A DNA stretch of 36,899 nt from positions 1-36,899 of IMG/VR virus record IMGVR_UViG_3300024581_001758. The stretch is one strand, 5' to 3'. Below the pieces are notes generated by a model. That model was given only the letters and a program-made list of their open reading frames with translations. It ran no database searches and was not told where the DNA came from. Shown piece by piece: positions 20,098 to 31,557 of this stretch (position 1 is its first letter; each line of letters starts with the position of its first letter). A program made the position numbers and the translations under genes. This DNA is from a virus.

Positions 20098-20126
20098 TTG
20101 ACAGACCCCCTCTACCGTGTTATAAT
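20098..20126 (+). promoter_or_regulatory. Consensus sigma70 promoter
   Basis: TTGACA (20098-20103), a 17-nt spacer, then TGtTATAAT (-10 hexamer at 20121-20126). The -35 element is enclosed by the dyad AGGGGG/CCCCCT (20092-20111). Confidence 0.85.
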
Positions 20127-22668: not shown

Positions 22669-22697
22669 TTGACGGGCGGGCCGACCCGTGCTATAAT
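22669..22697 (+). promoter_or_regulatory. Sigma70 promoter
   Basis: TTGACG (22669-22674), a 17-nt G+C-rich dyad spacer, then TGcTATAAT (-10 hexamer at 22692-22697). Confidence 0.8.
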
Positions 22698-24042: not shown

Positions 24043-24063
24043 GAGGGCCGAAAGGCCCTTTTT
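24043..24063 (+). terminator. Rho-independent terminator
   Basis: GGGCC-gaaa-GGCCC followed by TTTTT. Confidence 0.8.
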
Positions 24064-24077
24064 CATTGGAGGCAATA

Positions 24078-24350
24078 ATGGCTAACAACTACGATAACAC
24101 GAACGACGGGGCAGTTTTCCCGAATGAGAATAGAACAGGGCCTAACTCACCTAACGCGAAAGGCAGCGCCTGTATCCAGTGTCCGCACTGCGGAGCGAAA
24201 GCAAACTTTTGGGTCAGCACGTGGACCAAAGTCTCGAAAGCTGGCAAGAAGTACATGTCACTAGCATTCAACCCTAAAGAGGAAAGACCGCAGCAGTCGG
24301 GGCAGCTGAACCAAGAGCCGATTGATTTCGACGACGACTTGCCATTTTAA
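24078..24350 (+). CDS. Small protein, 90 aa, with a bacterial-SSB-like C-terminal tip and a CxxC motif
   Basis: A GGAGG sequence lies 5 nt upstream of the ATG at 24078. The protein ends in IDFDDDLPF (compare E. coli SSB ...DFDDDIPF). The core GAVFPNE...CIQCPHCG...KYMSLAFNPKE may be OB-like. Confidence 0.6.
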   Translation: MANNYDNTNDGAVFPNENRTGPNSPNAKGSACIQCPHCGAKANFWVSTWTKVSKAGKKYMSLAFNPKEERPQQSGQLNQEPIDFDDDLPF

Positions 24351-24376: not shown

Positions 24377-26257
24377 ATGTACAGTCCAATCCCAAACCTA
24401 GAGCGCGAACCGTTCATCAGCCTTGATACCGAGGGCGATGGCCTATACTACCCGCGCAACAAAGCCTTTGGTGTGTCGATTTCGACCCGCGACCACGATT
24501 ACTATTGGGACTTGCGCGACGAGCCACACATGGTAGCCGAGCTGCAACGTCTATTGAACGACTACAAGGGCGACATCGCTTGCCACAATGCGTCGTTCGA
24601 TGCGAAGATGTGCAAAGTAGCGGGAATCAGCATCCCACTGGAAAAATTAGTGTGCACCTGCGTTAACGCTTGCCTAATCAACGAACATGAGTCCACGGTT
24701 TTCCCTTGGACGCGCGGCAAAGCTGGCGATTATTCATTGGATTATCTGGCCCAGAAATACCTAGGCCTGACCAAGGACCATAGCTTTTACGACAAGGCGC
24801 GCGAACACTTCGGCAAGCCGAAGATGACCAAAAACCAAATCATGTCCCGCATTGCTGAGCTGCCGCGCCATATCGTCGAGCCGTACGCCAAGCAGGATAC
24901 CCGAGTTACGTACCAGCTGCATGCGCGCCAACAGGAGATAATCTGGGAAGACGGCCTGCAGCAAATCGTGGCGTTTGAGCGCGACACCATGCCTAGGCTT
25001 ATCAGGGCCGAAATGAGGGGCGTTGACGTTGACGTGGAAGAAACCGAACGTGCGATGCCTAAGTTAACCGAAATCATCGACCAGAAACAGGCCGAACTTA
25101 ACAAGCTAGCGGGGAAAGAAGTCAATGTCAACTCTACGCCACAGATTAGAGAGCTTTTCGCTCCAACCGAGACCGACAACGGATGGGTCGCTAAAGATGG
25201 CACTCCATTACAGTCAACCAAGTCAGGCGCGGCCTCTTTTGGAGGCAATGCACTTCGAGACATCAGCCTACCTGAGGCTCGCATCATTGTGGATATCCGC
25301 TCCCTCATTAAGACGAGAGATACATTCCTTGGCTCGCACATACTTAAACATGAAGTCAACGGAAAGGTATACCCTAATATCAACCAGTGCAAAGGCGAGG
25401 ACGGCGGTACTGGCACTGGTCGCCTCTCGTATACTGGACCCGCGTTGCAACAAATCCCTGCCCGTAATAAGCAGGTCGCTTCAATCGTTAAGCCTTGCTT
25501 TCTCCCGCCACAAGGGATGAAGTGGGTAGAGCCAGATTTAGCATCGTTCGAAGTGCGCGTGTTCGCTCACTTAGTGGCCGCATATAACGACACGCTAGTC
25601 CAAGCGTACGCTAAAAACCCATCGATGGACTTCCACCAGTGGGTGGGCGACATGACTAATCTGCCTCGCAACGCGACGTATAGTGGCCAAGCGAACGCAA
25701 AGCAGCTCAACCTATCGATGATTTTCAACCAAGGTAACGGTACGACTGCCGAGACTATGGGCATGGATTGGGAGTGGGCCGAGTTCACCGACAAAGAGGG
25801 CAAATTGGTCCGCTATAAGAAAGCTGGCCCTAACGCTATGAGCGTAATCAATAACTACCATAGCCAAATACAGGGCGTTAAGACTCTGGCCACTCGATGT
25901 AAAATGGTGGCGGAAGAAAGGGGATACATAAAAACCAAAATGGGGCGCAGACTCCGATTCCCGTATAAATTCAAATCTTACAAAGCGTCTGGACTGTTGA
26001 TACAGGCCACGTCGGCGGACTTCAACAAGCGTAATTGGCGCAGAATTGAAGAGGCTCTGGGCAACGACGGACACCTTATTCTAAACACCCACGATAGTTA
26101 CAGCCTCGCCACTCCTGAGAATTGGAGACCCCACTTCGCCCGAGTCAAAGAAGCAATCGAAGATGTTAGCGACATCGGGATGCGAGTCCCATTGATTCTG
26201 GATTTGGATGGCGCGGGGGACAATTGGTGGCAAGCTAAGTGCGGACAGGAGAAATAA
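24377..26257 (+). CDS. dpoZ: Family A DNA polymerase with a 3'-5' exonuclease domain, 626 aa; candidate DpoZ-type enzyme
   Basis: Exo motifs SLDTEGDGL, HNASFDAKM and YAKQDTRV. Pol motifs DLASFEVRVFAHL (A), NAKQLNLSMIFNQG (B) and LNTHDSY (C). The DpoZ subtype is inferred only from linkage to purZ. Confidence 0.85.
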   Translation: MYSPIPNLEREPFISLDTEGDGLYYPRNKAFGVSISTRDHDYYWDLRDEPHMVAELQRLLNDYKGDIACHNASFDAKMCKVAGISIPLEKLVCTCVNACLINEHESTVFPWTRGKAGDYSLDYLAQKYLGLTKDHSFYDKAREHFGKPKMTKNQIMSRIAELPRHIVEPYAKQDTRVTYQLHARQQEIIWEDGLQQIVAFERDTMPRLIRAEMRGVDVDVEETERAMPKLTEIIDQKQAELNKLAGKEVNVNSTPQIRELFAPTETDNGWVAKDGTPLQSTKSGAASFGGNALRDISLPEARIIVDIRSLIKTRDTFLGSHILKHEVNGKVYPNINQCKGEDGGTGTGRLSYTGPALQQIPARNKQVASIVKPCFLPPQGMKWVEPDLASFEVRVFAHLVAAYNDTLVQAYAKNPSMDFHQWVGDMTNLPRNATYSGQANAKQLNLSMIFNQGNGTTAETMGMDWEWAEFTDKEGKLVRYKKAGPNAMSVINNYHSQIQGVKTLATRCKMVAEERGYIKTKMGRRLRFPYKFKSYKASGLLIQATSADFNKRNWRRIEEALGNDGHLILNTHDSYSLATPENWRPHFARVKEAIEDVSDIGMRVPLILDLDGAGDNWWQAKCGQEK

Positions 26258-26258
26258 A

Positions 26259-28559
26259 GTGCAGCTGCAATATGAAGAAATAAAAGAGATAATCGAGATT
26301 GACGATTTTGCGGAGCGGGTACATGCCGCCGCCGTAATGTACGCACGTCAAGGGTTTTACGTCATTCCGATTCGCCGAAACCAAAAAGCAATACCGCCGT
26401 CGGCAATGCGCGTGTCGTATAGTAACGCGACCACCAACTTGGATACAATCGAACGTTGGTATGGTCCTGAAGGCAAATTCCGAGGCTGGAACATCGGCCT
26501 TGCCTGCGGTGCTGAGAACGGCATTTTCGTCGTCGATGTGGACGTGAAGCAAGACAAAGACGGCCGAGTGGCCATCGATGCTATAGAAGAGGACCATGGG
26601 CCTATCGGCGGATTGGTCCAACGCACGGCAAGCGGGTCGTACCATCGCGTCTTCCGTTGGTTCAACGGCGGCACGTCGTCCACTGACAAAATCGGGCGCG
26701 GCGTCGATACCCGAGGCGGGAAGGGCAGGTGTTCATCACACATCGTCGCTTGGCCGAGTGAGATAGACGGGAACGCCTACCAATGGGAGACCATAGGGGA
26801 CGTGCCTGAATGCCCTGATTTTTTGGTCGAGTTGATGGGTACGCCATGGGACGTACCTGACGAAGACTACGGCAATGAAAATGTGACTGATGCCGAGCTT
26901 GAGACTAAGTTCACCAAACGTCAAATTTGGGATATGTTGGTCAAAATAGACCCCAATAGCCTGACTTATGACGAATGGTTGAACATCGGCATGGCAATTC
27001 ACAGCCAACACCCCGAGGACGGTTTGCGATTGTGGGATGCTTGGTCGCGTGGGGGCGAAAAATACGAAGACGGCGAGTGCCACAAGCGCTGGGCTGGATT
27101 CAAGCCATATGGGCCAGTGCGTGTCGGGTCGTTGATTCACTTCGCCAAGATGGGTGGCTGGATTCCGACCCCGCAAATTGCAGATGAAGCCCTGCGCCAA
27201 GAAATGGCCGAGGCCGAGGACGAGTACAGCCAAATCATCGAAGAAATGAATAAAGAGTACGGTGTAGTTCTGGTCGGCGGCAAGATTCGAATCATGGCGA
27301 ATGCCATTAACAAAGACCCTGACCGAGATTTGACCCTCCTATCGATGGAAGATTTCAAGGTCATGTGCATGAACAACAAAATCATGGTGACGGGGGCGCA
27401 AGGCCAACCCAAGATGGTCAGCAAAGCCACCATGTGGATGGGCGACGAGCGACGCAAGGATTTCATGGGCGGGATAGACTTCGACCCATCAAAACCTGCT
27501 GAATTCGACACACCTAACGGGCTGGCCATGAATTTGTGGCGTGGCTGGGCCAAACAACCGAAGCAAGGCGATTGGTCGAAGCTGCGCGCCCACATCGAAC
27601 AGGTCGTGTGCAGTGGCAAGAAAGAGCACTACACGTGGGTACTGGACTGGATGGCCGATTTGTTCCAAGACCCAGCGAATCCCAAGGGCTGCGCTCTAGT
27701 AATGCACGGCCTAGAGGGCTGCGGTAAGGGTACGCTAGTCGAAGCCTTGGGCCGCACAATGGGCCGCCACTACAAACACTTAGTCCATGAAAAGCACCTA
27801 ACTGGCGAATTCAACGGCCACCTGCAAGACGCACTATTGGTATTTGCGGATGAATTGGTGTATGGCGGCAGTAAGAAGACTGCGGGCGCGTTGAAAGCCA
27901 TGGTAACAGAATCAATGTTAATGACCGAGCGAAAGGGCGTCGATGCCCAGCGTAGTCGCAACTGCGTCCACTTGTGTATCGCGTCTAACGAAGCATGGTT
28001 TATACCAGCAGGCCCAGAATCTCGCCGTTGGTTTGTGCTTGAAGTAGCGCCGACCCACTGCAAGAATCCTGATTGGTTCGATGCCATCTACGAGGAAATG
28101 GACAACGGCGGGATAGAAGCCATGATGTACGACCTATTGCAGCGTAAAATCACGTCCAACTTGAAGCGCGCGCCTGAGACAGAATCGCTCGCCATGCAAC
28201 GTGCCATGTATAGTGACTCGGTTCGTGATTCCGTGTACGATTGGTGGCAGACCTGCATCGAGCGCGGTGCGGTGGAAGTGTCGTGCCTAGAAAACGACTC
28301 GACCGAGCAAGGCTGGCCGTCACTGGTCATCAAGCCCGACTTATATGACGCCTACGACAGATGGTGCGCCGAGAAACGGATACCATCACATCAAGTGACG
28401 GGCAAAGACCTATTCTATAAGAAGATGAATAAATTGGGCCTCGATGAAAAGATGCCTAAAGCTAAGGACGTGATTCGCAAAGCGGGCGGCCGCAAGCGTT
28501 GTTTTGTTATCCCAGAACACGAACAGGCCATAAAAGCTGTTATGAATTACGTGAAGTAG
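26259..28559 (+). CDS. Primase-polymerase (PrimPol) / SF3 (D5-like) helicase fusion, about 766 aa
   Basis: PrimPol N-terminus YARQGFYVIPIRRNQKAIP...FVVDVDVK. PriCT-like segment YDEWLNIGMAIHSQHPEDGLRLWDAWS. P-loop VMHGLEGCGKGT and LLVFADE. A GTG start at 26259 is proposed, 9 nt after AGGAGA and 1 nt after the polymerase stop. The track's ATG at 26208 would overlap the polymerase gene by 50 nt. Confidence 0.8.
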   Translation: MQLQYEEIKEIIEIDDFAERVHAAAVMYARQGFYVIPIRRNQKAIPPSAMRVSYSNATTNLDTIERWYGPEGKFRGWNIGLACGAENGIFVVDVDVKQDKDGRVAIDAIEEDHGPIGGLVQRTASGSYHRVFRWFNGGTSSTDKIGRGVDTRGGKGRCSSHIVAWPSEIDGNAYQWETIGDVPECPDFLVELMGTPWDVPDEDYGNENVTDAELETKFTKRQIWDMLVKIDPNSLTYDEWLNIGMAIHSQHPEDGLRLWDAWSRGGEKYEDGECHKRWAGFKPYGPVRVGSLIHFAKMGGWIPTPQIADEALRQEMAEAEDEYSQIIEEMNKEYGVVLVGGKIRIMANAINKDPDRDLTLLSMEDFKVMCMNNKIMVTGAQGQPKMVSKATMWMGDERRKDFMGGIDFDPSKPAEFDTPNGLAMNLWRGWAKQPKQGDWSKLRAHIEQVVCSGKKEHYTWVLDWMADLFQDPANPKGCALVMHGLEGCGKGTLVEALGRTMGRHYKHLVHEKHLTGEFNGHLQDALLVFADELVYGGSKKTAGALKAMVTESMLMTERKGVDAQRSRNCVHLCIASNEAWFIPAGPESRRWFVLEVAPTHCKNPDWFDAIYEEMDNGGIEAMMYDLLQRKITSNLKRAPETESLAMQRAMYSDSVRDSVYDWWQTCIERGAVEVSCLENDSTEQGWPSLVIKPDLYDAYDRWCAEKRIPSHQVTGKDLFYKKMNKLGLDEKMPKAKDVIRKAGGRKRCFVIPEHEQAIKAVMNYVK

Positions 28560-28574
28560 AATCACAATAGGCGG

Positions 28575-28603
28575 TTGACAGGACCGCCACAGGATGCTAT
28601 AAT
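28575..28603 (+). promoter_or_regulatory. Consensus sigma70 promoter of the purZ operon
   Basis: TTGACA (28575-28580), a 17-nt spacer, then TGcTATAAT (-10 hexamer at 28598-28603). The dyad GGCGGT/ACCGCC (28570-28588) encloses the -35 element. Confidence 0.85.
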
Positions 28604-28634: not shown

Positions 28635-29666
28635 ATGAAAAAAGTAGACTTAATCATCGATTTACAGTTCGGTTCAACAGGCAAAGGCCTAATCGCGGGC
28701 TACCTAGCTGAGAAAAACCAACCAGATGTAGTAGTAACGGCCAACATGCCGAACGCGGGCCACACCTACATCAACGCCGAGGGCCGTACTTGGATTCACA
28801 AAGTCCTGCCTAACGGTATCGTATCGCCGAAATTGAAGTATGTACTAATCGGCGCAGGTGCGGTGTTCGACCCTGAACGATTGAAAAAAGAAATCACGGA
28901 ATCAGCCGACTGTTTAGCTAGCGCGGACGTTCTCGTCCATGAGAACACGGGGGTGCTAGCCCCCCGTCACAGCGAGGAAGAACGCGCTAAACTATCGGGT
29001 ATTTCGTCGACCATGCAGGGCTCAGGTGCTGCGCTAATGGAGAAGATGGAGCGCGACGGCAGCAAGCCAATCTTAGCGCGCGACGCACTGCCTGAGTCGT
29101 TTGATGTCGCTGGCGTTACGGTCCGAGTAGTTACCCACCAAGAGTACATGAACGTGCTTTACGCGGCGGAACACGTATTGGCCGAGGGCGCGCAGGGCTA
29201 CAGCCTATCGCTCAATGGCCGATTCTGGCCGTTCTGCACTAGTCGTGATTGTACGCCTGCTCGATTCCTAGCCGACATGGGCATTCCACACAAGATGCTA
29301 CGCAAGGTCATCGGTACGGCACGTTGCCATCCAATCCGCGTTGGCAGTACGGCGGATGGCTATAGCGGCGACTACTACCCAGACCAAAAAGAACTGCAGT
29401 GGGCGGACGTTGGCCAGAAGCCTGAGACAACCACTGTTACGGGCCGAGTACGCCGTATTTTCTCATTCAGCCGCCAGCAAATCGCAGAGGCACTGGCGCA
29501 CTGCCAGCCTGACGAGATATTCTTGAACTTCTGCAACTACACTGAGACCTACATGGACATCGTGAACGCCATTGAAGTAGAGAACCGCTGCGCTAACGAT
29601 GGCAAGCCACTGGTCAAGTACCTAGGCCACGGCGCTACTAAACTAGATGTAAAGGAGCGTTTCTAA
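28635..29666 (+). CDS. purZ: PurZ-like N6-succino-2-amino-2'-deoxyadenylate synthase (divergent adenylosuccinate synthetase homologue), 343 aa
   Basis: PurA-family blocks are recognisable: DLQFGSTGKGL (versus PurA QWGDEGKGK, with the catalytic Asp replaced by Ser), NAGHT, AEGAQG and TVTGRVRR (versus ATTGRRRR). The ATG at 28635 lies 4 nt after an AGCGAGAG box. The track's TTG start is the -35 hexamer. MazG-like and HD genes follow directly. Confidence 0.8.
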   Translation: MKKVDLIIDLQFGSTGKGLIAGYLAEKNQPDVVVTANMPNAGHTYINAEGRTWIHKVLPNGIVSPKLKYVLIGAGAVFDPERLKKEITESADCLASADVLVHENTGVLAPRHSEEERAKLSGISSTMQGSGAALMEKMERDGSKPILARDALPESFDVAGVTVRVVTHQEYMNVLYAAEHVLAEGAQGYSLSLNGRFWPFCTSRDCTPARFLADMGIPHKMLRKVIGTARCHPIRVGSTADGYSGDYYPDQKELQWADVGQKPETTTVTGRVRRIFSFSRQQIAEALAHCQPDEIFLNFCNYTETYMDIVNAIEVENRCANDGKPLVKYLGHGATKLDVKERF

Positions 29667-29923
29667 TGGGCGATTATTCAGAAGCACAGGCCATCATCAA
29701 CAAGATGGCCGAGGCGAAAATGGTGATGAACGCCCATAAGGGCAACATCGAAGACGTCCATGTCAGCCGACTGTTGAAATGCATCAGAGATGAAGTGAAT
29801 GAACTTGATGCGGCGACGGACGCCGACAATATAATGCACATCATTGAGGAGGCGGCAGATGTCCAAAACTTCCTATTGGCCTTGGTACAACAACAACTTA
29901 ACGCGTATAGGAGTCGCAAATGA
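29666..29923 (+). CDS. mazZ: MazG-like all-alpha nucleoside triphosphate pyrophosphohydrolase, 85 aa (MazZ position)
   Basis: The EVNE...EEAAD metal-binding pattern (ExxE...ExxD). The start overlaps the purZ stop (TAATG), and an AAGGAG sequence lies upstream. Confidence 0.65.
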   Translation: MGDYSEAQAIINKMAEAKMVMNAHKGNIEDVHVSRLLKCIRDEVNELDAATDADNIMHIIEEAADVQNFLLALVQQQLNAYRSRK

Positions 29924-30360
29924 ACATCAACACCCAATTACTAGCAGCAGGCGTCACGCGTTGGCACATCGTCGAGACAACGCGCCAGCAAAATCTGGCC
30001 GAGCACCAATTCAACGTGGCGATTATCGCCCGTTGGATTGCCCAGCGTCTGGGCCTAAACGCCCAAGATACGTCTACCGTAGTTGAATCGGCGCTACTGC
30101 ACGACCAGCACGAAATTATGGATGGCGATACGCCGTCGACAGCCAAGCGCGAAAAGACGGTAAATTCAATCCTCATTCCGCGTATCGTTCAAGTAGCAGA
30201 CAAAGTGGAGGCTCTATGGTTCATCCATGCGAGACACATCAACCGACCAGACGTAGTGGAGGACGTACGTCAACGTCTGAGCAATCTAATGGTCCAGCTA
30301 AACGAAGACGAGGCAGCGGTTATTTACGCTCTAATCAGAGAGCTAGGGATAGACAAATGA
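29920..30360 (+). CDS. datZ: HD-domain (YfbR-like) deoxynucleotide phosphohydrolase, 146 aa (DatZ position, predicted dATPase)
   Basis: RWH...LAEHQF...ALLHDQHEIMDGDTPS gives the H..HD..D metal ligands. The start has an ATGA overlap with the upstream gene. Confidence 0.7.
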   Translation: MNINTQLLAAGVTRWHIVETTRQQNLAEHQFNVAIIARWIAQRLGLNAQDTSTVVESALLHDQHEIMDGDTPSTAKREKTVNSILIPRIVQVADKVEALWFIHARHINRPDVVEDVRQRLSNLMVQLNEDEAAVIYALIRELGIDK

Positions 30361-30776
30361 GCGGAGAAAAGACACTACGCAAATACGCGGCTGGACTGTT
30401 GAAGCCGTTCGGCCACATCAGCCAATTGGAGTCGGGCGCTACTGCAGCAGGCGTCCCAGATACCAATTTTTTCGATAAAGAAACGGGCCGCGACATTTGG
30501 GTTGAGCTGAAATACGGCGCGCCCAGAAAGCCATGGGAACTGAGAAAGACGCAGGTCGCGTGGATTCGAGCAAGAATCCGCAAAGGGGGCAAGGTCTTTC
30601 TGCTGCTCAAGTACGGGGGCGAAGAATGTACATACACCTTAATAAACGTAGACAGCGAAGAGAAGCTGGATGCCTTGAATCACAGCCAGAATGTGTTGCA
30701 TTGGGCGATGCAAAGCCAAAAAGAATGGACGAAGAGAATTCCGCAAGACGAACTAGTACAGGAGCTAAGAAAATGA
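30357..30776 (+). CDS. PD-(D/E)xK nuclease, VRR-NUC-like, 139 aa
   Basis: GVPDTNFF...GRDIWVELKYG...KTQVAWI. The ATG at 30357 has an ATGA overlap with datZ. The track's upstream extension is Arg/Ser/Gly-rich low-complexity sequence. Confidence 0.65.
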   Translation: MSGEKTLRKYAAGLLKPFGHISQLESGATAAGVPDTNFFDKETGRDIWVELKYGAPRKPWELRKTQVAWIRARIRKGGKVFLLLKYGGEECTYTLINVDSEEKLDALNHSQNVLHWAMQSQKEWTKRIPQDELVQELRK

Positions 30777-31093
30777 ACGATTTAGATAATATCCTTGAAC
30801 AACGCGGCCAGCAAAACGGCGATTACGGTCTGATGTGCGATATCATCCAATCGCTGAAAGAGACGATGTACTCGACCAATCGCGCGGCAAACATGACGCC
30901 GTATCAAAGAGAAACCATCGACATGATTTGCCACAAACTGGGTCGAATCGCCACTGGCGACACTTGGCACGAAGACCACTGGCGCGACATCGCAGGGTAC
31001 GCCACACTAACGGCGGACCGAGTGAAGCAGCGCAATTCCGCAAACCAGCCTCCTGCTGCCGCTCCCCTCGCTCCTGCGGGAGCTGGGTCATGA
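30773..31093 (+). CDS. Conserved phage protein, 106 aa (DUF6378-like; possibly nucleotide-associated)
   Basis: EQRGQQNGDYG...ICHKLGRIATGD..HEDHWRDIAGYATL pattern. ATGA overlaps occur at both ends. The functional assignment is weak. Confidence 0.55.
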   Translation: MNDLDNILEQRGQQNGDYGLMCDIIQSLKETMYSTNRAANMTPYQRETIDMICHKLGRIATGDTWHEDHWRDIAGYATLTADRVKQRNSANQPPAAAPLAPAGAGS

Positions 31094-31557
31094 GTGCCGC
31101 GCAGATAGTTGGTGCTGAACTCGGCCAACTTAAAATAGACGAGGGATTCAGCGAGATTGCGTACGTCGACACCGAGGGTTATCTCACTATCGGTTATGGT
31201 ACTTGTGTCGCGTATGTGGGTGATATCGAAATTAGGCCGATATGGCGAATCAGCCAAGAACACGCAGTCCAATTACTGCGCCAATCAGCAGTCGATGTTT
31301 ACATGGAAATGGACCGCACTTGGCCGTGGTTCGACCATATGCCATTGGGTGTGAAAACGGTACTGCTGAACATGGCGTACAACATGGGTGTGCCGCGATT
31401 GAGCGGGTTCAAGAAAACATTGGCATTTATCAAAAACCACCAGTACGAAAAGGCCGCAGACGAAATGCTCCGCGACTCTACTGGCACTGGCCGTTCCCTG
31501 TGGTATCAACAGGTCGGCCATCGAGCCAAACGCCTCTCCGACAGACTCCGCGCATAA
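31090..31557 (+). CDS. Endolysin, T4-type lysozyme (GH24 muramidase), 155 aa
   Basis: KIDEGFSEIAYVDTEGYLTIGYGT carries the catalytic Glu/Asp/Thr signature. It is the last gene of the plus-strand unit. Confidence 0.85.
   Translation: MSAAQIVGAELGQLKIDEGFSEIAYVDTEGYLTIGYGTCVAYVGDIEIRPIWRISQEHAVQLLRQSAVDVYMEMDRTWPWFDHMPLGVKTVLLNMAYNMGVPRLSGFKKTLAFIKNHQYEKAADEMLRDSTGTGRSLWYQQVGHRAKRLSDRLRA

Follow-up and report, generated by a model that had tools for sequence, protein, structure and literature searches.

The stretch analysed here (the window; 36,899 nucleotides) is the complete 36.9-kb genome of an uncultivated, marine-type podophage resembling ZP6 and phiVC8. Its positions 24,377 to 28,559 hold a gene for a family A DNA polymerase of 626 amino acids (24377..26257) followed by one for a primase-helicase of 766 amino acids (26259..28559); these genes, like every feature described below, lie on the plus strand. 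The closest strong promoter 5' of the unit that contains them is a sigma70-type element at 22669..22697 (TTGACG-17-TATAAT with a TG-extended -10; 11/12 consensus positions), identified by consensus match only. A hairpin that resembles a terminator, with a run of T behind it (24043..24060; pattern match only), stands just 5' of a 94-amino-acid ORF (24066..24350), which adjoins the polymerase gene on its 5' side. The product of this ORF resembles single-strand DNA binding proteins (phrog_18154, E 6e-11; phrog_7364, E 8e-10), and it is 56% identical to the product of the ZP6 gene in the equivalent position.

Downstream of the primase-helicase gene is a perfect sigma70 promoter (28575..28603; TTGACA-17-TATAAT with TG; 12/12), and beyond it lies the cassette for synthesis of 2-aminoadenine, the Z base. 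The first gene of the cassette, purZ (28635..29666), begins 2.4 kb 3' of the polymerase gene and encodes 343 amino acids from the ATG at 28635; its product matches the PurZ structures of phiVC8 (6FM1, E 1.8e-117) and S-2L (7ODX, E 1.4e-67). A longer purZ ORF opening at TTG 28575 was rejected because that triplet is part of the -35 box of the 12/12 promoter. The second gene (29666..29923) encodes an 85-residue, MazZ-like small MazG-type pyrophosphohydrolase (PRA-PH, E 1.2e-4; phrog_9860, E 1e-22). A phmmer search of the PDB with this protein returned no match; it is 51% identical to ZP6 gp22 and 44% identical to phiVC8 p26, both of which are encoded at the equivalent position. The third (29920..30360) specifies a 146-residue, DatZ-like HD-domain phosphohydrolase with matches to YfbR-like and HD families and to phrog_7076 (dATP triphosphohydrolase; E 3e-21). 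This protein aligns with S-2L DatZ (6ZPA, E 9e-10) across the H...HD...D motif.

The polymerase and primase-helicase genes are separated by a single nucleotide, since the polymerase stop codon (TAA, 26255-26257) is followed by a GTG at 26259 that opens behind an AGGAG (26247-26251). Initiation at this GTG yields the same N-termini as in phiVC8 and in the IMG/VR orthologs. The alternative ATG at 26208 would impose a 50-nt overlap with polA and lacks ortholog support, and it is the GTG at 26259 that has a Shine-Dalgarno sequence; the ATG is probably unused. A prior sequence-only reading of this DNA had proposed just this arrangement, namely a PolA of 626 amino acids with an intact 3'-5' exonuclease, a PrimPol/PriCT/D5-helicase fusion starting 1 nt later and then purZ, and our analysis bears it out.

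The polymerase contains a 3'-5' exonuclease domain (DNA_pol_A_exo1, residues 8-184, E 1.4e-16; approximately nt 24398-24928) and a polymerase domain (DNA_pol_A, residues 223-617, E 1.5e-36; approximately nt 25043-26227). The exonuclease residues D17, E19 and D75 are present, Y170 and D174 are invariant in the ortholog alignment, and the catalytic residues of the polymerase domain (R431 and the HD of motif C) are intact. Its closest match in the PDB by phmmer is the DpoZ of phiVC8 (7PBK, E 4.8e-230); the second is the Klenow fragment (E 2.8e-27). In a tblastn search of phage genomes, all matches of at least 40% identity belong to PurZ-bearing phages (ZP6, 68%; Vibrio phages, 55-56%; Burkholderia, 50%; SH-Ab 15497, 40%), and the remainder do not exceed 26.6%. 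In our trees, the enzyme groups with those of ZP6, L015 and L016 (100/100), and this group is nested in a clade that contains phiVC8 DpoZ (100/100). That clade excludes the non-Z polymerases of a T5-like phage and of Jack, ZCSE2 and Kimi (split support 98/92); the SH-Ab 15497 DpoZ clade forms the neighboring branch. The non-Z relatives sampled for the tree were Jack, ZCSE2 and Kimi; phiJL001 (NC_006938) was left out.

The insertions and residues that characterize phiVC8-like DpoZ enzymes have been catalogued (PMC8599892), and all of them are found in the window polymerase. Insertion 1 (GEDGG) occupies residues 340-344, insertion 2 residues 433-439 and insertion 3 residues 464-482; the signature residues are R431, L446, F450, G539, S574, K152 and M156. 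In phiVC8 numbering, L446, F450 and G539 correspond to L455, F459 and G548, and K152 and M156 to the helix E2 positions R/K161 and M/I/A165; the catalogue permits the change of R161 to K (PMC8599892). Taken together, the best structural match, the tree placement and the signatures offer good support for the identification of this protein as a DpoZ, which the sequence-only reading had put forward as a candidate. The phiVC8 and SH-Ab 15497 enzymes have both been assayed and both prefer Z (PMC8599892). Because it is homologous to them, the window polymerase is predicted to favor dZTP over dATP opposite T.

Clade membership alone is no proof of Z use, because a subclade without PurZ nests inside the DpoZ clade. 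The members of this lineage carry F459M and G548A, whereas the window enzyme retains the F459/G548 states. This lineage is a by-product of the analysis with further potential, as it could guide mutagenesis aimed at DpoZ selectivity. We also observed inserts of about 300 amino acids in some DpoZ-like representatives; their ends, of the form Cys...N followed by S/T/C, are visible by alignment only, and a Pfam search of these inserts gave no intein match.

The primase-helicase comprises, in order, Prim-Pol (PF09250, ORF904-like; E 2.9e-21; 77.0 bits, cut-off 22.8), PriCT_2 (E 6e-21; 75.0 bits, cut-off 22) and DUF5906/VapE domains (DUF5906, E 8e-21, 75.3 bits, cut-off 27.6; VapE-like, 25.8 bits, cut-off 25), all above the Pfam gathering scores; the Pfam matches of this protein and of the polymerase are far beyond chance. 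The archaeo-eukaryotic primase (AEP) Prim-Pol domain spans approximately 26334-26819, PriCT-2 26931-27146 and the SF3/D5-VapE-type helicase 27687-28097, and the whole protein matches phrog_1156 (E 5e-96). The AEP motifs (DxD, sxH and hD) are intact, with D93-x-D95, H129 and D150 invariant across 28 orthologs, and the helicase carries Walker A (GLEGCGKGT) and Walker B (FADE) motifs. An AlphaFold model (pLDDT 89) places pRN1 ORF904 (E 6e-7) and NrS-1 N300 as the best folds for the N-terminal 330 residues, and the helicase portion of the protein resembles that of NrS-1 (6K9E, E 3e-10). Given 44% identity over the full length and the same Pfam architecture, we identify the protein as the ortholog of phiVC8 p28; its identity to ZP6 gp24 is 55%. 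Homologs of this primase also occur with PolA in PurZ-less phages: the non-Z phage Jack encodes the pair, as do four IMG/VR genomes with a completeness of 99% or more. By these comparisons, the primase does not depend on Z.

The order DpoZ-primase-PurZ is not peculiar to this genome. It recurs in phiVC8, in ZP6, in Stenotrophomonas phage BUCT555 and in 55 of the 74 uncut related loci from IMG/VR, which were retrieved with an alignment query (a single-protein query returned none). The identities of the genes in the window, their orthology, the clade placement and signature residues of the polymerase and the conservation of gene order are established. The sequence-only reading had paired purZ with one enzyme or the other, DpoZ or PrimPol, so that the presence of both would be special. 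That view was mistaken; phiVC8 itself encodes p29 (DpoZ), p28 (PrimPol-helicase) and p27 (PurZ) side by side. In podoviral Z-phages, PrimPol-type primase-helicases normally partner DpoZ rather than replace it, and the layout of polymerase, primase-helicase and Z-synthesis genes in the window is normal for the phage group.

We therefore judge, with a probability of roughly 0.88, that this region is the core of a replication module in which a phiVC8-like DpoZ works with an ordinary replicative primase-helicase, with the Z cassette downstream. In the mechanism that we propose, the primase-helicase, translationally coupled to DpoZ and composed of an AEP PrimPol of the pRN1-ORF904/NrS-1 type, a PriCT-2 helix bundle and an SF3 hexameric helicase, would open the fork and prime for DpoZ. 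DpoZ, a proofreading family A polymerase, would then copy the genome, choosing dZTP ahead of dATP where the template has T, while the purZ-mazZ-datZ cassette, under its own consensus sigma70 promoter, would make dZTP and destroy dATP. From these two activities we infer that selection of Z over A would reflect DpoZ kinetics plus the clearing of the dATP pool by DatZ. No contribution of the primase to this selection is proposed; like every primase in the phage group, it would need only to read Z-containing templates; its priming activity and its tolerance of Z are predictions, as is the presence of Z in the virion DNA of this phage.

Exclusion of adenine by DpoZ together with DatZ is the most likely arrangement, but other divisions of labor can be envisioned. 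The PrimPol-helicase could be a second true DNA polymerase, like that of S-2L or NrS-1, responsible for long DNA primers or for a large share of genome synthesis, with adenine excluded there by DatZ instead of DpoZ. Its AEP, PriCT-2 and SF3 helicase architecture equals that described for S-2L PrimPol, and the folds closest to it are those of pRN1 ORF904 and of the NrS-1 enzyme, a self-priming primase-polymerase. Yet a complete, proofreading PolA is always encoded beside it, the same pair occurs in non-Z phages and there is no detectable sequence relation to the S-2L AEP domain, the structure of which (6ZP9) ranks only 46th among the fold matches (E 0.34); we thus consider this role improbable. 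An ordinary replicase without selectivity, with DatZ alone to exclude adenine as in S-2L, is a very improbable reading of the polymerase. The PurZ-less lineage nested in the same clade would be compatible with such an enzyme, as would the failure of any one residue to account for the selectivity of phiVC8 DpoZ (PMC8599892). Against this stand the position of the window enzyme in the phiVC8 DpoZ clade, adjacent to that of SH-Ab 15497, both with Z-preferring members (PMC8599892), and its retention of F450 and G539, exactly the residues altered in the PurZ-less lineage. Finally, the notion that the locus is a novel hybrid of a phiVC8-type DpoZ strategy and an S-2L-type PrimPol strategy finds favor in superficial domain names only. 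The identical arrangement in phiVC8 and in most of the related loci refutes it, and the primase does not belong to the S-2L (All3500-like AEP) type; this reading has almost no chance of being correct and was dropped.

A question that concerns the whole phage group, not the window specifically, is how the primase copes with Z-containing templates and which substrates it takes, NTPs or dNTPs. The primase-polymerases pRN1 ORF904 and NrS-1 extend with dNTPs, and therefore the window primase may lay DNA primers. The A/Z content of such primers would be set by the nucleotide pool instead of by DpoZ. We regard it as unlikely that phiVC8-type PrimPol-helicases, like pRN1 ORF904 and NrS-1, make DNA rather than RNA primers, such that part of each Z genome would be written without DpoZ-type selectivity. 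If they do, priming could not dispense with clearing of the pool by DatZ, unless the primase were itself adapted to Z. Our literature search found no biochemical study of a phiVC8-type primase.

With the window, the phiVC8-type Z-DNA phages gain one further ZP6-like genome that is complete and comes from an uncultivated phage. Among cultured phages, its closest relative is Alteromonas phage ZP6 (Mareflavirus; gp25-gp21): nearly the whole of the two genomes is collinear, the polymerases are sisters in the tree, and the identities are 69% for TerL, 61% for MCP, 68% for PolA, 55% for the primase and 56% for PurZ. The tail and receptor region differs, however, and the window phage is uncultivated. 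Amino acid identities of 35-69% suggest that the two are at least different species, and they probably belong to different genera. In Vibrio phage phiVC8 (Enhodamvirus), the five genes p29 (DpoZ), p28 (primase), p27 (PurZ), p26 and p25 (DatZ) have the same order and orientation as in the window, with identities of 55% for DpoZ, 44% for the primase and 58% for PurZ. All of the DpoZ insertions and signature residues are common to both, and in phiVC8 a promoter and a terminator are annotated as predictions at the primase/purZ junction, where the window promoter also lies. Nevertheless, phiVC8 represents a different phage lineage, as most of its structural genes are 25-50% identical to those of the window or have no match there; further, its E2 helix has R161 where the window has K, and its polymerase and primase genes overlap by 11 nt instead of being separated by 1 nt. 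Cyanophage S-2L, also a Z-genome phage, shares with the window the three-part primase architecture, but its PrimPol has no significant sequence similarity to the window protein (BLASTP E 0.039, confined to the P-loop) and, unlike it, no Pfam Prim-Pol match. This is at odds with the view of the window primase as an S-2L-type counterpart. Because S-2L has no PolA, PrimPol is its sole polymerase, whereas the window encodes DpoZ directly 5' of the primase. The primase-polymerases of pRN1 (ORF904) and phage NrS-1 are the best fold matches to the N-terminal 330 residues of the window primase (E 6e-7 to 8e-4), albeit at sequence identities of 12-16%, and those enzymes work without a separate PolA.

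The polymerase of the window (24377-26257, + strand, 626 aa, stop codon TAA ending at 26257) comprises the Pfam domains DNA_pol_A_exo1 (aa 8-184) and DNA_pol_A (aa 223-617). Among solved structures its best match is the DpoZ of phiVC8 (7PBK, E 4.8e-230), with Klenow second (2.8e-27). Comparison with 50,697 phage records revealed a clean break: the matches of at least 40% identity are all from PurZ-bearing phages, and the next are at or below 26.6%. Identity is 68% to ZP6, 55-56% to the Vibrio phiVC8 group, 50% to Burkholderia, 49% to BUCT555 and ~40% to the SH-Ab 15497/PMBT28 group. Trees combining 71 relatives from IMG/VR with named landmarks and anonymous representatives were inferred with IQ-TREE (LG+G4, quick, 96 rows; LG+C20 PMSF, quick and careful, 45 rows). 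In these, the window polymerase, ZP6 and two IMG/VR loci (L015 and L016) form one group (100/100) nested in a 100/100 clade with phiVC8 DpoZ. Adjoining this clade is the branch of the SH-Ab 15497/PMBT28 group; the non-Z polymerases of Pseudomonas phage Jack, Salmonella ZCSE2, Sphingomonas Kimi and a T5-like phage fall outside, beyond a branch supported at 98/92, and the Wayne-like polymerase is far off.

According to Czernecki et al. (PMC8599892), phiVC8-like DpoZ enzymes are marked by three insertions, by extended helices E1/E2 in the exonuclease that carry R/K161 and M/I/A165, and by four atypical residues, L455, F459, G548 and S583. A MAFFT alignment places every one of these in the window polymerase, with insertions GEDGG at 340-344, insertion 2 at 433-439 and insertion 3 at 464-482, and with signature residues K152, M156, R431, L446, F450, G539 and S574. 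The sequence-only reading had called this protein a candidate DpoZ, an assignment that its position inside the DpoZ clade upholds. By analogy with its assayed relatives, it probably prefers dZTP.

Some DpoZ-like polymerases are ~900-926 aa long and bear inserts of ~300 aa, located after window aa 440-448 in representatives P0005, P0007, P0019 and P0034 and after aa 346 in P0036; these sites fall within motif B (helix O) or insertion 1. The inserts are intein-like, with Cys at the start, N or Q at the end, and then S, C or T; a Pfam search of them gave no intein match.

The window is an entire IMG/VR virus record (36,899 bp) that has direct terminal repeats and is rated 100% complete. The gene layout had been described correctly in every detail: ORFs, 1-nt gap, domains and the adjacent purZ. 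The primase-helicase ORF (766 aa, + strand) runs from GTG 26259, one base after the polymerase stop and with AGGAG 7 nt 5' of it, to 28559; this start is preferred because it reproduces the N-termini of orthologs, and ATG 26208 was set aside. The product matches Pfam Prim-Pol, PriCT_2, DUF5906 and VapE-like, and PHROG 1156 'DNA primase' (E 5e-96). The window PurZ matches the solved structures of phiVC8 PurZ (6FM1, E 1.8e-117) and S-2L PurZ (7ODX, 1.4e-67). Its gene starts at ATG 28635; TTG 28575, the first codon of the long purZ ORF, was rejected, as it belongs to the -35 hexamer of a promoter with perfect consensus (TTGACA-17-TATAAT). A MazG-type gene (85 aa) lies 3' of purZ, and a DatZ-like HD-domain gene occupies 29920-30360 (146 aa; best solved relative S-2L DatZ, E 9e-10). 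The latter product is shorter than the 170-175 aa of phiVC8, ZP6 and S-2L; its HD motifs are intact, its C-terminal part is short and diverged, and its alignments to profiles and PDB entries fall mainly within the first 80-98 residues. Three genes with overlapping stops and starts come after datZ, at 30357-31557; they encode a VRR-NUC-like protein (phrog_2165), a DUF6378 protein and a phage lysozyme. Predicted sigma70 promoters at 20098-20126, 22669-22697 and 28575-28603 (+ strand; two perfect at 12/12 consensus matches, one 11/12; all with a TG extended -10) precede early + replication gene blocks, and the last divides polA-primase from purZ-mazZ-datZ.

The juxtaposition of PolA and PrimPol had been taken as unusual, a view that the relatives contradict. 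In phiVC8, p29 (DpoZ), p28 ('DNA primase', 762 aa), p27 (PurZ), p26 and p25 (dATPase) are ordered exactly as in the window, as are gp25-gp21 of ZP6 and the genes of Stenotrophomonas phage BUCT555, whose primase is mislabelled 'integrase'. We also placed primase, PurZ, MazZ and DatZ by tblastn in 80 IMG/VR loci with a PolA at least 42% identical, and counted arrangements in the 74 that are uncut. Since 55 of these are polA-primase-purZ (2184-2900 nt from polA end to purZ start), the window displays the majority state of the clade; 14 are polA-purZ without an intervening primase homolog, and five have no PurZ. SH-Ab 15497, PMBT28 and Bm1 are of the polA-purZ type. SH-Ab 15497 and PMBT28 are siphoviral Z-phages; in both (L006:6513-9869 and L012:4514-7869), a UvrD/PcrA-type helicase gene lies directly 5' of DpoZ, a small gene for an SSB or DNA-binding protein separates DpoZ from PurZ, and the fetched region yielded no homolog of the PrimPol-helicase. 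On this gene content, the two DpoZ sublineages differ in their replisome partners.

The PrimPol had also been likened to that of S-2L. The likeness holds for architecture: the S-2L PrimPol paper describes AEP (1-190), PriCT-2 (210-300) and SF3-like helicase parts, and the window primase shares this three-part arrangement. It fails for sequence, profile and fold. BLASTP gives E 0.039, over the P-loop surroundings only; S-2L PrimPol has no match to Pfam Prim-Pol; and a phmmer search of the PDB with the window primase did not find 6ZP9 (S-2L). We modeled its N-terminal 330 aa with AlphaFold2 using 28 orthologs (mean pLDDT 89.2), and Foldseek retrieved the pRN1 ORF904 primase-polymerase (9AAM, 3M1M, 1RNI; E 6e-7 to 3e-5) and NrS-1 N300 (E 8e-5 to 1e-3), with 6ZP9 at rank 46 (E 0.34). 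Extension with dNTPs is a trait of these nearest structural relatives. In the helicase part, which resembles the helicase domain of NrS-1 (E 3e-10), the Walker A motif reads GLEGCGKGT and the Walker B motif FADE; the catalytic D93-x-D95, H129 and D150 are invariant among orthologs. The close kin are phiVC8 p28 (44% identity over the full length, identical Pfam architecture) and ZP6 gp24 (55%).

Sequence comparisons further indicate that this type of primase is not tied to Z. Homologs of ~30% identity occur in non-Z siphophages whose hosts are Pseudomonas, Xanthomonas, Stenotrophomonas and Bordetella; that of Pseudomonas phage Jack is encoded 1.5 kb 3' of the related non-Z PolA. Within the clade itself, PurZ is absent throughout four IMG/VR genomes of 99% completeness or more (source of loci L067:7025-11484, L078:6989-11508, L082:6992-11460 and L083) and was likewise not seen in the 55%-complete genome of L079; as a positive control, the search recovered PurZ in four other records. 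MazZ and DatZ were not found in the fetched loci of this subclade. These genomes retain polA, primase and the VRR-NUC-like nuclease, the last directly after the primase, and what is missing between primase and nuclease is exactly purZ-mazZ-datZ. Their polymerases form a 100/100 subclade that nests within phiVC8-like DpoZ and has BUCT555, L055 and L041 as its sister group; they keep insertions 1-3 and L455 with the changes F459M and G548A (phiVC8 numbering), a natural pointer to Z-linked residues. PolA and primase thus constitute the more ancient replication core, and the Z cassette, with its own predicted promoter, forms a module separable from it.

The analysis shows these identities, orthologies, conserved gene orders, intact catalytic motifs and promoter-like sites; the scheme that follows is drawn from assayed homologs. 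MazZ and PurZ would feed dZTP synthesis, DatZ would remove dATP (PMC8065100), and DpoZ would favor dZTP by one to two orders of magnitude (PMC8599892). The PrimPol-helicase would unwind the fork and prime, as suggested by S-2L PrimPol (PMC8065100). By homology, then, selection of Z over A would be enforced by DpoZ together with DatZ.

The authors of the ZP6 paper noted that primase and polymerase are common to ZP6 and the Vibrio phages, and that PurZ, dATPase and polymerase are similarly placed in them (PMC8515928). The genomes of ZP6 and the window are collinear, with 35-69% amino-acid identity. The window genome adds a new ZP6-like phage to the Z-phages of phiVC8 type, and its replication genes show no departure from the known phiVC8-type system.
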